A stretch of 64,000 nt of DNA, from assembly GCA_037574385.1 (NCBI GenBank), contig GCA_037574385.1_4529.1, one strand, 5' to 3'. Shown here in pieces: positions 2-4,802 of this stretch. The first letter of the stretch is position 1; every line of letters begins with the position of its first letter. Source of the stretch: a phage. A program made the translations under genes and the position numbers. Below the pieces are notes generated by a model. That model was given only the letters and a program-made list of their open reading frames with translations. It was not told where the DNA came from and searched no databases.

Positions 2-2215
2 GAAAACTATGCTTTGGCCACTGTTGTTACTTACCATGATAATAACGCATACGGCGACGGTCAAACTCTTTTAGGTTATTACCAAGGTGGTAATTATCAT
101 CATTATTTCCGCGGTAAGGGTACTACAAACATTAATACTCACGGCGGTTTGTTGGTTACTCCTGGTAATATTGACGTTATTGGCGGTTCTGTTAATATAG
201 ATGGTAGAAATAATTCTTCTACACTAATGTTTAGAGGCAACACAACAGGATACAGCTCGGTTGATAATATGGATATTAAAGTTTGGGGTAATACGTTTGT
301 TGATCCAAGCGGAGGTACCCGTAAAAACATTATGGAAATTTCTGATGCAACTAGCTGGATGAGCTATATTCAAAGACTTACTACTGGCGAAGTAGAAATG
401 AACGTTAATGGTTCATTTGAATCATCTGGTGTTACTGCTGGAGATAGAGGAGTTCACACAACAGGTGAAATTTCATCTGGAGCAGTGAATGCTCTTCGTA
501 TTTGGAACGCAGATTATGGAGCCATTTTTAGACGTTCAGAAGGCAGTCTTCATATTATTCCAACTGCTTATGGTGAAGGTAAACACGGTGATATCGGTCC
601 ACTTCGCCCGTTTAGTATGGCTTTAGATACTGGTAAAGTTACTATTCCAGATTTACAATCAAGTTACAATACGTTTGCTGCGAATGGCTATATTAAATTT
701 GTTGGTCATGGAGCAGGCGCTGGTGGTTATGATATTCAATATGTTCAAGCAGCTCCTATTTTCCAGGAAATTGACGATGATGCTATAAACAAATATTATC
801 CTATTGTTAAACAGAAGTTTTTAAACAGTAAAGCTGTTTGGTCTTTAGGTACTGAAATTAATTCGGGTACATTTGTTTTACACCATATCAAAGAAGATGG
901 TTCACAAGGCCATACATCAAGATTTAACGCTGACGGTACAGTTAACTTCCCGGATAACGTTCAAGTCGGTGGCGGTGAAGCTACTATTGCTCGCAATGGT
1001 AATATCTGGTCTGATATCTGGAAAACGTTTACTTCTGCCGGTGATACTACAAATATTCGCGATGCTATTGCGACTCGTGTTTCGAAAGAAGGCGACACGA
1101 TGACCGGCAAATTGACTTTATCTGCAGGTAACGATGCCCTTGTTTTAACTGCAGGTGCTGGTGCTTCATCACATATCCGTAGTGATGTAGGTGGTACAGG
1201 TAATTGGTATATAGGCAAAGGCGGTGCCGACAATGGTCTAGGTTTTTACAGTTACATTACACAAGGCGGTGTATACATAACAAATACCGGTGAAATATCG
1301 CTTTCTCCTCAAGGACAAGGAACATTTAATTTTAATAGAGACCGCCTTTATATAAATGCTAGTCAATGGGTTGCACATAAATCTGGCGCTTGGGGCGACC
1401 AATGGGGCTTAGAAGCTCCTGTATTTGTGGATTTTGGCTACGTCGGTAATGATAGTTATTATCCTATTATCAAAGGAAAATCAGTTATTACTAATGAAGG
1501 ATTTGTATCAGGCGTTGATTTTGGTATGCGCCGTACCCCTAATATGTGGGCACAAGGTATTATCCGTGTAGGCAACCAGGAAAACGGTTCAGACCCACAA
1601 GCCATCTATGAATTCCACAGTAACGGTACTTTTTATGCCCCTAGCCTACTTAAGAGCAATAGAGTATCAGCAGGTGGCGGTGACCCCGTATGGGCCGGGC
1701 CATGTATTGTTCTTGGCGATAATGACACAGGTCTAGTTTGGGAAGCAGATGGTATTTTCAACGCATACGCAAACGGACAAGGCGTGTTTAGTTTTAGAGC
1801 TGGTCTCGCACAAACATTTGGTAACGTATCTTTAAACGTTAACGCAGGTATGTATGTTCGTGATAACATTGATGTTAACGACGTTTATATCCGTTCTGAT
1901 ATTCGCTGTAAGTCAGAAATTAAGCTTATTAAGAACGCTCAAGAGAAATCTAAACTCTTAGGCGGCTATACTTATCTGCTTAAAAACTCTGTTACAGACG
2001 AAGTTAAACCATCTGCAGGTTTAATTGCTCAGGAAGTTCAAGAAGTATTGCCTGAACTTGTTTCTGAAGATAAAGAGACCGGACTGCTTCGTTTGAACTA
2101 TAACGGTATTATTGGTTTAAATACTGCCACTATCAACGAGCATACTGACGAAATCAAGGAATTGAAATCTGAAATTGCTGAGTTGAAAGCATTAATTAAA
2201 TCATTGATAAAATAA
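2..2215 (+). CDS. 37: long tail fibre distal subunit gp37, C-terminal part (5' truncated at window edge), with C-terminal intramolecular-chaperone/autocleavage domain
   Basis: Frame is open to position 2 (track start at 14 is a TTG). Gly/Asn/Thr-rich fibre-like sequence; last ~120 aa (DVYIRSDIRCKSEIKLI...GLIAQEVQEVLPELV...) resemble the S74-type intramolecular chaperone of fibre/endosialidase proteins; followed by gene 38. Confidence 0.8.
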   Translation, partial: ENYALATVVTYHDNNAYGDGQTLLGYYQGGNYHHYFRGKGTTNINTHGGLLVTPGNIDVIGGSVNIDGRNNSSTLMFRGNTTGYSSVDNMDIKVWGNTFVDPSGGTRKNIMEISDATSWMSYIQRLTTGEVEMNVNGSFESSGVTAGDRGVHTTGEISSGAVNALRIWNADYGAIFRRSEGSLHIIPTAYGEGKHGDIGPLRPFSMALDTGKVTIPDLQSSYNTFAANGYIKFVGHGAGAGGYDIQYVQAAPIFQEIDDDAINKYYPIVKQKFLNSKAVWSLGTEINSGTFVLHHIKEDGSQGHTSRFNADGTVNFPDNVQVGGGEATIARNGNIWSDIWKTFTSAGDTTNIRDAIATRVSKEGDTMTGKLTLSAGNDALVLTAGAGASSHIRSDVGGTGNWYIGKGGADNGLGFYSYITQGGVYITNTGEISLSPQGQGTFNFNRDRLYINASQWVAHKSGAWGDQWGLEAPVFVDFGYVGNDSYYPIIKGKSVITNEGFVSGVDFGMRRTPNMWAQGIIRVGNQENGSDPQAIYEFHSNGTFYAPSLLKSNRVSAGGGDPVWAGPCIVLGDNDTGLVWEADGIFNAYANGQGVFSFRAGLAQTFGNVSLNVNAGMYVRDNIDVNDVYIRSDIRCKSEIKLIKNAQEKSKLLGGYTYLLKNSVTDEVKPSAGLIAQEVQEVLPELVSEDKETGLLRLNYNGIIGLNTATINEHTDEIKELKSEIAELKALIKSLIK

Positions 2216-2220
2216 TAAAA

Positions 2221-2234
2221 GGGCCTTCGGGCCC
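2221..2234 (+). promoter_or_regulatory. intercistronic RNA hairpin GGGCC-UUCG-GGCCC between 37 and 38
   Basis: Perfect 5-bp GC stem with UUCG tetraloop, then U5 and GGAGG-N5-ATG of gene 38. Confidence 0.5.
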
Positions 2235-2245
2235 TGGAGGTTTTT

Positions 2246-3025
2246 ATGGCAGTAGTAGGAATACCTGGTTGGATTGGAACATCAGCAGTGGCTGAAACAG
2301 GTCAACGTTGGATGTCAGCAGCTTCTAGAGAATTACGTCTAGGGAACCCATCTTGGATGTCACAATTCGCTGGACGTTCAAGAGAAATTATTCACACTCT
2401 TGGAGCAGACCATAACTTTAATGGTCAATGGTTCCGTGACCGCTGTTTTGAAGCCGGTGGCGCTCCTATAGTGTTTAATATCACAGGCAACTTAGTATCA
2501 TATTCTAAAGACGTTCCTTTATTCTTCATGTATGGTGATACTCCTAACGAATATGTTACTTTGAATATTCATGGTGGTGTTCATATGTGGGGCCGAGGTG
2601 GTAATGGTAGCGTAAATGGAAGCCCAGGCACTAATGGCGGCGACGTAATCCAAAATGATATTGGTGGACGACTTCGCATTTGGAACTATGGCGTTATTGC
2701 ATCAGGTGGCGGTGGCGGGGGTGCAGTGTCGTTAAAGAATAGCTGGGATGCGTATGCTACAGCTGGTGGTGGCGGTGGCAGGCCATTTGGTCTTGGCGGC
2801 GGCGGTGTTAATTGGCCTGGTGGCAATGCTAGTTATGACGGTCCAGGTGGTGGCGGTAATACAAGTCAATTTGGTGGCGGCAATGGCGGTGATGCTGGGG
2901 GTGCTGGTGGTGACGGATGGGGCAGTCACTTATCTAGATCTGGGGGTGGTGCTCCTGGTAGAGCAGTATTCGGAAGTTCACCTTCATGGGGTGCTACAGG
3001 CACAATCTACGGCTCCTGGATTTAA
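2246..3025 (+). CDS. 38: tail fibre adhesin gp38 (T2-type receptor-recognising protein with glycine-rich motifs)
   Basis: 259 aa; conserved N-terminus MAVVG.PGWIG...QRWMS...[14 protein letters not shown]; C-terminal half has polyglycine runs (GGGGGG) separating short variable segments, as in T2/T6 gp38. Confidence 0.9.
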
Positions 3026-3043
3026 ACGATAATACCTCTCAAT

Positions 3044-3051
3044 TATAAATA
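3044..3051 (+). promoter_or_regulatory. late promoter TATAAATA upstream of t
   Basis: Exact TATAAATA ~20 nt upstream of the holin ATG; consensus of T4 gp55-dependent late promoters. Confidence 0.6.
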
Positions 3052-3070
3052 TTGATAAATGGGAGGTAAT

Positions 3071-3730
3071 ATGGCAGCACCAAAAGTATCATTTTCGCCT
3101 AGTGATATTTTATTTGGGTTGCTAGACCGCATTTTCAAAGATAACGCCTCTGGAAATATTCTTATTTCCAGAGTTGCTGTTGTAGTTCTTTTGTTCCTAA
3201 TGGCACTAATATGGTACAAAGGGAGTATTTTTATGGATTATTACGTGAGGTCGAAATATGATACTTACACAGAAGTAATTCAAAAAGAAAGAAATACACG
3301 ATTTGAATCTGCGGCTTTAGAACAACTACAAATAGTCCACGTCACATCAAGGGCGGATTTTAGTTCGGTGTATTCTTTCAGACCTAAAAATCTAAATTAT
3401 TTCGTCGACCTTATTGCGTATGAAGGTAAGTTACCTAGCACAGTAACTGAAAAATCTATGGGAGGATTTCCTGTCGATAAAACTACAGCAGAATATTCGG
3501 TCCATTTAAGTGGACTTCACTTTACTTCTAAAACAGATTTTGCTTTCTTACCTACCAAATCAAAAACTCCGGAACTGGCATATATGTATAGTTGTCCTTA
3601 CTTCAATTTGGATAACATATATGCTGGAACTGTTTCTATGTATTGGTATAAGGGGTCGGATGTGTTAAATGAAGAACGCTTGGCAGCAATATGCAACCAA
3701 GCAGCAAGGATATTAGGGCGGGCTAAATAA
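3071..3730 (+). CDS. t: holin T (lysis timing)
   Basis: Starts MAAPKVSFSPSDILFGLLDRIFKDNA, one TM segment, ends ...CNQAARILGRAK; high identity to T4 holin as I recall it. GGGAGG 5 nt upstream of ATG 3071 (track ORF begins at 3059). Confidence 0.9.
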   Translation: MAAPKVSFSPSDILFGLLDRIFKDNASGNILISRVAVVVLLFLMALIWYKGSIFMDYYVRSKYDTYTEVIQKERNTRFESAALEQLQIVHVTSRADFSSVYSFRPKNLNYFVDLIAYEGKLPSTVTEKSMGGFPVDKTTAEYSVHLSGLHFTSKTDFAFLPTKSKTPELAYMYSCPYFNLDNIYAGTVSMYWYKGSDVLNEERLAAICNQAARILGRAK

Positions 3731-4250: not shown

Positions 4251-4500
4251 AGAATGACATTTCGTATTCTAGGACATTAAGAGCCCGTTCTTCAGTATAG
4301 TCAGAACCAAAGACGATAGTGATTTCACCAGGCTTCATATGATTGAAATCGACACTAAAAGGAATACGAGAACATACTTCGTCTGCCATATCTGCAACAA
4401 CACTACGATATACTTCTCGGTTAACCTGATAAAGCTCTGCAAGTTCTTCACAACGAATAACAAGTTCAGTGGCAGGATTTTCTTTGATTTTAGTAAGCAT
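4213..4500 (-). CDS. hypothetical early protein (95 aa); positional candidate for Arn-like anti-restriction protein
   Basis: Acidic 95-aa ORF at the position where T4 has arn; no sequence match verified. Confidence 0.45.
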   Translation of the reverse strand: MLTKIKENPATELVIRCEELAELYQVNREVYRSVVADMADEVCSRIPFSVDFNHMKPGEITIVFGSDYTEERALNVLEYEMSFFDIQDYIDSYKE

Positions 4501-4574
4501 AGTCTTTACCCTTATGTTTTTGTTTGCGTTTAGATTGAAGTTCTGATTTCTTCTTGTCCTTATGGACAGAAGCC

Positions 4575-4802
4575 TTATTGAAATCGTGTTTTGCTACAAG
4601 ATTGTTCATAATGATTTATAACCTCATTTAAACATTTATCGGTAAAAGAAAACTTTTTAGCCACAGAACATTCGATAATGTGCTCTTTCAAATCTTTAGG
4701 GTCGGTATAACCCATCTCAGTAATAAAGTGGCGAATTAAAGCTTTATTCTTATCATTAACAGAATTAAAATAATCTGCTTTAGAATCAATTATTCTCATC
4801 AT
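4575..4802 (-). CDS. hypothetical early protein (75 aa)
   Basis: ORF in operon orientation, tightly packed. Confidence 0.45.
   Translation of the reverse strand: MMRIIDSKADYFNSVNDKNKALIRHFITEMGYTDPKDLKEHIIECSVAKKFSFTDKCLNEVINHYEQSCSKTRFQ

Follow-up and report, generated by a model that had tools for sequence, protein, structure and literature searches.

Among described phages, a close counterpart of the locus considered here is the long tail fibre tip of Salmonella phage S16, a complex of gp37 and gp38 (PDB 6F45, Dunne et al. 2018), as it is presented in PMC6851490 and PMC7917993. S16 gp37 is reported to undergo autocleavage at DLNVS^SDRRIKK (^ marks the cut) after trimerisation, and release of the chaperone exposes the docking surface for gp38 (PMC7917993). 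Three tryptophans of S16 gp38 plug into gp37 (PMC6851490), and the docking role of the gp37 tip is described in both sources. The variable part of gp38 was divided by Trojet et al. into five glycine-rich motifs (GRMs) and four hypervariable segments (HVSs) (PMC3157838). Swap and point-mutation experiments demonstrated that host range is set by the gp38 loops (PMC3157838; 10.64898/2026.04.02.716166). Those experiments concern close relatives of the phage analyzed here, whose gene 37-38 locus lies at the left end of a 64,000-nucleotide (nt) stretch of DNA (contig GCA_037574385.1_4529.1; hereafter the window, to which positions refer), and by analogy the locus would determine the host range of this phage as well. 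It very probably encodes a long tail fibre tip that follows the T2/S16 plan and serves receptor recognition in a T-even phage of the genus Mosigvirus (RB69-like), with OmpF as the most likely receptor. As a system, the gp37-gp38 tip is known, and homology has already served to annotate it; NCBI lists the exact gp38 sequence as EMS9118401.1 ('receptor-recognizing protein'), encoded on a contig of 168,592 bp that is deposited under E. coli.

Family and Fold of gp38

Gene 38 occupies 2246..3025 on the + strand and encodes a protein of 259 residues and 26.1 kDa. Residues 47-259 match the Pfam family GP38 (PF05268) with 274.3 bits (cut-off 25, E 1.1e-81) and residues 1-42 match Gp38_N (PF21721) with 74.2 bits (cut-off 25); T2 gp38, which served as control, matches both. 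The protein also belongs to PHROG 2056, 'tail fiber protein; host specificity' (E 1.3e-108), while NCBIfam was uninformative, as none of its models matches gp37, gp38 or T4 gp38. End-to-end alignments were obtained with gp38 of T2 (51% identity over 263 columns, E 3e-52), T6 (P0019; 65% identity, 99% coverage) and RB69 (86% identity).

Sequence matches in the PDB are the receptor-binding domain of PP01 gp38 (9v85, 4e-74) and S16 gp38 (6f45_D, 2e-50). An AlphaFold2 model was built on 111 homologues, and the conservation entropy of each column was calculated on 111 homologues. The model has a mean predicted local distance difference test (pLDDT) score of 90.4 and a predicted template modelling (pTM) score of 0.82, and pLDDT falls below 50 solely at residues 166-169. 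In a Foldseek comparison of the model with the PDB, E values of 0.001 or lower were obtained only for 9v85 (TM score 0.92, root-mean-square deviation (rmsd) 1.5 Å) and 6f45_D (TM score 0.82-0.86), and all other chains had E values above 2. The predicted fold is a beta-helix plus a polyglycine-II sandwich.

The N-terminal attachment domain (residues 1-46; 2246..2383, + strand) carries the three tryptophan 'prongs' W9 (2270), W22 (2309) and W37 (2354). These residues are conserved in 98%, 99% and 85% of the 111 homologues, respectively, and align with W7, W20 and W36 of S16. The model places each of them just ahead of one of three predicted helices, which span residues 10-18, 23-29 and 38-40. 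A linker and the central beta-helix follow (residues 47-115; 2384..2590, + strand); the strands of the model run from residue 48 to 115 with pLDDT values of 93-97, and among the OmpF-type relatives the identity in this part is 96-99%. Family membership, homology, the tryptophans, the alternation of GRMs and HVSs, the modelled fold and the position of the gene directly downstream of gene 37 and upstream of the holin gene t all place gp38 among the tail-fibre adhesins of the T2/T6/S16 type.

Distal Tip and Chaperone Domain of gp37

The 3' part of gene 37 (2..2215, + strand) encodes the last 737 residues of the distal subunit of the long tail fibre in a frame 2 open reading frame (ORF) that is open from the window edge and stops at 2213-2215. 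The 5' end of the gene lies beyond the left window edge, and two consecutive stop codons, TAA TAA, occupy 2213-2218. The full-length protein probably has ~1083 residues, as in AlbertHofmann. The assignment to gp37 is supported by PHROG 1699, 'long tail fiber protein distal subunit' (E 2.8e-226), and by the records of relatives. A Gp34_trimer-like shaft domain (PF21446, E 2.9e-7, 31 bits with a cut-off of 27) spans residues 107-205 of the partial protein (320..616, + strand), and residues 73-216 match the gp34 structures 4uxe and 5nxf in sequence.

The S16 gp37 construct that was crystallized for 6F45 can be aligned to the last 171 residues of gp37 (E 3.4e-30). The mature distal tip comprises residues 567-631 (1700..1894, + strand), aligns with the S16 gp37 tip (6f45_A) and ends in the strand DVYIR (1880-1894). 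The last 18 residues ahead of the cleavage site are invariant in the four relatives aligned, and by analogy with S16 the DVYIR strand is predicted to serve as the docking surface for gp38.

The remaining 106 residues (11.75 kDa; 1895..2212, + strand) form a Peptidase_S74 intramolecular chaperone and putative autoprotease. This family ('chaperone of endosialidase' in Pfam) also includes domains of endosialidase, T5 pb1 and GA-1 gp12. Pfam PF13884 matches residues 632-687 of 737 (E 5.9e-12, 46.1 bits with a cut-off of 22), and position 1 of the profile falls on Ser632; T2 gp37, used as control, reaches 56.5 bits. In the surrounding sequence, NDVYIR^SDIRCK, Ser632 (1895-1897) is the putative nucleophile and Lys637 (1910-1912) the putative base, and the predicted cut lies between Arg631 and Ser632. 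The same spacing is found in the endosialidase dyad, Ser911/Lys916. The motif VY(I/V)R-SDxRxK is invariant in T2, RB69, RB51, FL31, ESh24, ESh27, Shf125875 and AlbertHofmann, although the chaperone bodies of the more distant of these relatives are merely 36-61% identical. A profile built from the gp37 chaperone sequences matches the autocleaving domain of myelin regulatory factor (MYRF; 7dc3, E 6e-10), where ADLRAK is aligned to SDIRCK, the tail fibre 8jov (E 5e-7; SDERLK aligned), and the released chaperone of GA-1 (3gud, E 2e-3), the chain of which starts at the aligned serine as residue 1 of SDERHK. S16 SSDRRIK aligns with S632-D-I-R-C-K637, and a DVYIR^SD cut was predicted for Yersinia T-even phages in PMC7917993.

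T4 gp37 is different in that it contains the domains PF07484 (Collar) and PF03335 (Phage_fiber) without S74, whereas neither of the two is present in the window gp37. The C-terminal 440 residues could not be aligned with T4 gp37, whereas T2 gp37 does align. By sequence, gp37 ends in the manner of T2 and S16, with an S74 domain, rather than in a T4 needle tip. A preliminary description of the locus had proposed both a self-cleaving chaperone domain in gp37 and the T2/T6 adhesin architecture for gp38. The latter is borne out by the two Pfam domains, the full-length alignments and the fold match to 9v85 and 6f45_D. The former is confirmed as to the domain and its intact catalytic pair, and self-cleavage would be expected from the behaviour of close relatives.

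Glycine-Rich Motifs and Distal Loops

Glycine accounts for 39% of residues 116-241 of gp38 versus 12% of residues 1-115. The glycine-rich part contains six runs of at least three glycines (2705-2950), and its G+C content is 55% versus 37% for the whole window. In the specificity region (2591..2968, + strand) motifs and variable segments alternate in the manner of the five-GRM, four-HVS scheme: GRM columns have entropies of ~0 bits, HVS columns reach 2-3 bits, and the insertions and deletions all lie within HVSs. On the + strand, GRM1 (GRGGNG, residues 116-121; 2591-2608) is followed by HVS1 (2609-2635), a conserved turn of the beta-helix (2636-2701), GRM2 (SGGGGGGA, residues 153-160; 2702-2725), HVS2 (2726-2764), GRM3 (residues 174-185; 2765-2800), HVS3 (2801-2878), GRM4 (residues 212-222; 2879-2911), HVS4 (2912-2944) and GRM5 (GGAPGRAV, residues 234-241; 2945-2968). 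The strength of the Pfam GP38 match argues that this alternation is not due to chance.

The loop definitions of the PP01 crystal structure were transferred to gp38 through a HMMER alignment, which gave five distal loops, all encoded on the + strand. Loop A (SVNGSP, residues 122-127; 2609..2626) corresponds to W119-I124 of PP01 and carries two substitutions relative to the OmpF binders discussed below. Loop B (residues 163-172; 2732..2761) is the most changed; compared with AlbertHofmann it has four non-synonymous and no synonymous codon changes, and it holds the sole low-confidence segment of the model. Loop C (GGVNW, residues 186-190; 2801..2815) is unchanged, loop D (NTSQF, residues 205-209; 2858..2872) contains Q208, the equivalent of Q206 in RB51, and loop E (WGSHLS, residues 225-230; 2918..2935) shows N227S against all relatives compared. 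The preliminary description had placed glycine runs framing short hypervariable segments at 2690-2940. The core of that region stands, but its extent falls slightly short of the true span of 2591-2968, missing GRM1, loop A and part of GRM5; likewise, the short segments between glycine runs are recovered as the four classical HVSs, but structurally they resolve into five distal loops.

We also note a 14-nt direct repeat (GSTGGYGGTGRCGG-like) that occurs four times at 2705-2916, with spacings of 57-81 nt, in the DNA that encodes the GRMs. Short direct repeats of the GGTGGTGGCGG type in this DNA are expected from glycine codons and prove nothing alone. The repeats are possible sites of recombination or slippage between loops. 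Additional ORFs within the glycine-rich part, at 2748-3032 (+ strand), 2732-2929 (- strand) and 2686-2826 (- strand, proline-rich), were taken as by-products of GGN/NCC codon runs without stops.

Proposed Assembly and Receptor Recognition

In the proposed mechanism, the last 106 residues of the gp37 precursor would act as an intramolecular chaperone that aids the folding of three chains into the distal beta-helix. Ser632, with Lys637 as base, would cut the Arg631/Ser632 bond, and the 11.75-kDa fragment would depart. The cut would expose a flat tip ending in DVYIR, on which one gp38 would dock by its N-terminal three-helix domain, with Trp9, Trp22 and Trp37 inserted into three equivalent gp37 pockets. 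The rest of gp38 is expected to form a short beta-helix, from which two long glycine-rich excursions would pack as polyglycine-II (PGII) helices in a sandwich. The five short loops A-E at the far end of this sandwich would contact the host receptor, for which OmpF is the most likely porin. The analysis itself shows membership by sequence and predicted fold, the intact catalytic pair, the pattern of conservation and the clustering of amino acid changes in the loops; the cleavage, the docking and the identity of the receptor are extrapolated from close relatives.

For identity comparisons, the specificity domain was defined as residues 116-259 of gp38. It is 92% identical to the corresponding domains of AlbertHofmann (Bas47), FL31, RB51 and RB69, and 49-57% identical to those of the T6 (Tsx), M1/FL08/AV119 (OmpA), PP01-like (OmpC) and T2 (FadL) types. 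OmpF was identified as the receptor of AlbertHofmann by knockout and complementation (PMC8594841), of FL31, with a minor effect of TolC (PMC12032242), and of RB51 and RB69 (preprint 10.64898/2026.04.02.716166 and supplement). Because the specificity domain is so similar to those of four OmpF-dependent phages, and close relatives share the receptor in published gp38 trees (PMC12032242), OmpF is the probable receptor of the window gp38, a call made with less assurance than that of the tip architecture.

Comparison with AlbertHofmann reveals 13 amino acid differences in gp38, eight of which lie in the five loops. From AlbertHofmann to the window these are T122S and N126S in loop A, Q164K, A168D, P169A and N170Y in loop B, Y205N in loop D, and N227S in loop E. 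The loops thus hold 8 of the 13 non-synonymous but 6 of the 73 synonymous codon differences (Fisher p 5e-5). Loop C and Q208 are identical to those of the OmpF binders, and the loop lengths are the same.

The preprint supplement has no entry for ESh24, UGJNEcP4, phiC120, Shf125875 or ESh27, and the paper on the Shigella phages is silent on the receptor of ESh24. The gp38 in the GenBank record of RB68 (KM607004) is identical to that of RB51 (2509-3282 of the compared pieces), so that one protein with Q at position 206 stands under both accessions; the OmpW specificity of RB68 was attributed to Q206L in the preprint authors' own stock (10.64898/2026.04.02.716166).

Mosaic Structure of the Locus

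Between 3000 and 27900 the window shares 97.7% identity with Shigella phage ESh27 and 97.2% with phiC120, and because of these identities the source phage is assigned, at the level of sequence, to the RB69-like Mosigvirus. The gene 37-38 region is a patchwork, in which the nearest relative shifts every few hundred bases. In 1-1000 the nearest relatives are ESh24 and ESh27, with mostly 95-100% identity and 82-91% in four of the ten 100-nt bins. AlbertHofmann is nearest in 1200-1600 (93-96%), and nothing is close in 1700-1900 (at most 86%). From 2100 to 2637 the window is nearly identical to ESh24, a Tequatrovirus, with 99-100% identity per 100-nt bin and one mismatch in 2246-2637, so that this segment is shared across genera. 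ESh24 remains nearest in 2638-2960 with ~91% DNA identity, and from ~2960 the window follows the Mosigvirus backbone at ~100%. Outside 2100-2960, the DNA of ESh24 shares no more than 66-83% identity with the window from nt 2901 on, a part in which the window goes with its Mosigvirus relatives. By its sequence pattern, this mosaicism reflects the cassette exchange customary for the locus.

The three parts of gp38 also have independent relatives. BF15 is 98% identical in the N-terminal domain and 49% in the specificity domain, and the values for FL31 are 54% and 92%, respectively. The N-terminal type pairs with the type of gp37 tip: NIDVNDVYIR occurs with one type, and YVRDVYVR with that beginning MAVTG--PWVGS.

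The gp38 of ESh24 (ON528734) is 99.2% identical to that of the window, with two differences, R220A and N227S. Over the whole gene 38 the two phages differ by 2 non-synonymous versus 31 synonymous codon changes, and between window 2638-3013 and ESh24 4393-4768 there are 35 nucleotide differences (~9%). Because these 35 differences yield just two amino acid changes, the loop allele appears either to be held by strong purifying selection or to have been re-acquired from a third source.

Alternative Interpretations

In the records of several relatives (RB69, Shf125875 and others), gene 38 is labelled 'distal long tail fiber assembly catalyst' or 'assembly chaperone', which is the T4 function. Such labels favor a reading in which gp38 is a T4-type assembly chaperone outside the virion and gp37 itself binds the receptor. 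Direct comparison refutes this at the level of sequence and fold, and we give it practically no weight. Alignment with the T4 chaperone had been named in the preliminary description as the result that would overturn the adhesin assignment, but BLASTP of gp38 against T4 gp38 produced no meaningful alignment (E 0.13), and T4 gp38 matches no Pfam family, the adhesin domains found here included. The window gp37 lacks the T4 needle tip and has its own S74 chaperone, the RB69 and T4 records note that the unrelated 'gp38' of the T2 subfamily is an adhesin, and T6 gene 38 amber phages assemble normal virions that do not adsorb (PMC3157838). It is also very improbable, if slightly less so, that the S74-like module of gp37 has decayed into a remnant that no longer cleaves and is kept on the fibre. 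Cleavage is deduced rather than observed here and the domain is recognized at the sequence level, which would leave room for such a remnant; however, both catalytic residues and the VY(I/V)R strand are invariant across divergent relatives, the Pfam match scores at double its cut-off, cleavage of the homologous domain in S16 has been reported at the position that aligns (PMC7917993), and a retained domain would cover the docking surface for gp38.

Several points weigh against the preferred reading of a T2/S16-type tip directed at OmpF. Cleavage, stoichiometry and docking are carried over from S16, and the S74 assignment, on which Pfam, the catalytic pair and the PDB profile matches agree, draws its fold support from sequence profiles. 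The receptor call is the weakest step. Residues 116-259 carry 11 substitutions relative to the OmpF binders, eight of them in loops A (two), B (four), D (one) and E (one). A single change in loop D, Q206L, switches RB51 from OmpF to OmpW (preprint 10.64898/2026.04.02.716166), and ESh24, the nearest gp38 relative, with the same allele bar two residues, was isolated on Shigella. These observations speak for the same architecture with a loop allele (K164, D168, A169, Y170, N205, S227 and others) that recognizes something other than OmpF of E. coli K-12, for which candidates would be a different porin, OmpW or OmpC, or a porin variant specific to Shigella or to a pathotype. The retention of the allele despite ~9% DNA divergence from ESh24 may likewise suggest a selected, distinct binding solution. 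Against this stand the 92% identity of the specificity domain to proven OmpF binders, the unchanged loop C and Q208, and the sharing of receptors among close relatives in the gp38 trees. We therefore regard a receptor other than OmpF as possible but doubtful. Somewhat more doubtful still is the fuller proposal that the allele is a distinct specificity variant, carried on a cassette that moves between T-even genera, which retargets an OmpF-type scaffold to another porin or to a Shigella or pathotype porin variant.

Neighbouring Genes and Intergenic Elements

Gene 38 is followed by the T holin gene (3059/3071-3730; Pfam Phage_holin_T, PF11031, E 3e-89) and by asiA on the opposite strand. The resulting order 37-38-t-asiA is the same in T2, T4, AlbertHofmann, ESh24 and ESh27.

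Genes 37 and 38 are separated by 30 nt, which contain a hairpin, AGGGCC-TTCG-GGCCCT (2220..2235, + strand), and directly after it the Shine-Dalgarno sequence GGAGG of gene 38 (2236-2240, + strand). The hairpin is present with other stems in relatives: in T2, T4, RB69, RB51 and FL31 the stems differ but still pair around an unchanged TTCG loop, and ESh27 has the differing hairpin GGGGG-AAAT-GCCCCC. A terminator scan listed the element on both strands, but it is no proven terminator and was not read as one, because its T-run, which begins 6 nt past the stem, coincides in part with the gene 38 ribosome-binding site. Stable RNA hairpins with a TTCG tetraloop are common in T-even intergenic regions, and the element at 2220-2235 is read as one of this kind.

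The ORF list starts the holin at the first ATG, 3059, while a start at 3071 gives MAAPKVSF and 219 residues. The holin has 219 residues in AlbertHofmann and ESh27 and 218 in T2, T4 and ESh24, and by sequence its start is probably 3071 rather than 3059. The T4 late-promoter consensus TATAAATA is found at 3044-3051, 19 nt past the gp38 stop and 19 nt ahead of the ATG at 3071; three copies occur in the whole window, a number that does not exceed chance expectation. An almost perfect inverted repeat with an 11-bp stem, CTCTGGAAATA-TTCT-TATTTCCAGAG, lies at 3148-3173 inside the holin coding region and was listed on both strands by the terminator scan.

Implications for Annotation and Engineering

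For annotation, the analysis points to loops A-E of gene 38 (2609-2935) as the primary host-range determinants, and it corrects the 'assembly chaperone' or 'catalyst' label in the records of many relatives. For engineering, the loops bounded by GRMs and the boundaries between the N-terminal, beta-helix and specificity parts offer ready exchange points that have been validated in related phages. An adhesin swap must stay compatible with the fibre, since the gp38 N-terminal domain and the DVYIR tip of gp37 travel together. The loop allele would at most add one more natural variant to the question of how small a set of substitutions suffices to redirect an OmpF-type adhesin to a different porin.

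Comparison with Known Systems

As far as the S16 tip is described in the two sources cited above, it shares with the present locus the two-gene plan and, as predicted here, the self-cleaving C-terminal chaperone of gp37, a monomeric gp38 held on the trimer through three tryptophans, and the beta-helix plus polyglycine-II sandwich with five distal loops. The two differ in that gp38 identity is ~46%, the strand before the cut is DLNVS in S16 and DVYIR here, and the chaperone has 113 residues in S16 and 106 here. S16 binds OmpC of Salmonella, and its loops are unrelated.

PP01 gp38 (PDB 9V85; PMC12892980) is the closest solved structure, with 63-64% identity and the TM score and rmsd given above. 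In contrast to the predicted preference for OmpF, PP01 uses loops D and E to bind E. coli O157 OmpC (PMC12892980); all five loops differ in sequence, and the specificity domains are ~53% identical.

AlbertHofmann has an N-terminal gp38 domain that is 98% identical to that of the window and the same type of gp37 tip and chaperone, whereas in RB69, RB51 and FL31 the N-terminal domain is 50-54% identical and paired with the other gp37 tip, YVRDVYVR. ESh24 differs in genus, being a Tequatrovirus, while the window phage is placed in Mosigvirus. T2 (LC348380) is the prototype of the class. Its gp38 is 51% identical and T2 binds FadL; its gp37 is longer (1341 residues) with a chaperone of 99 residues, but the Pfam domains of both proteins, the VYIR^SDIRxK site and the gene order are the same as in the locus described here.

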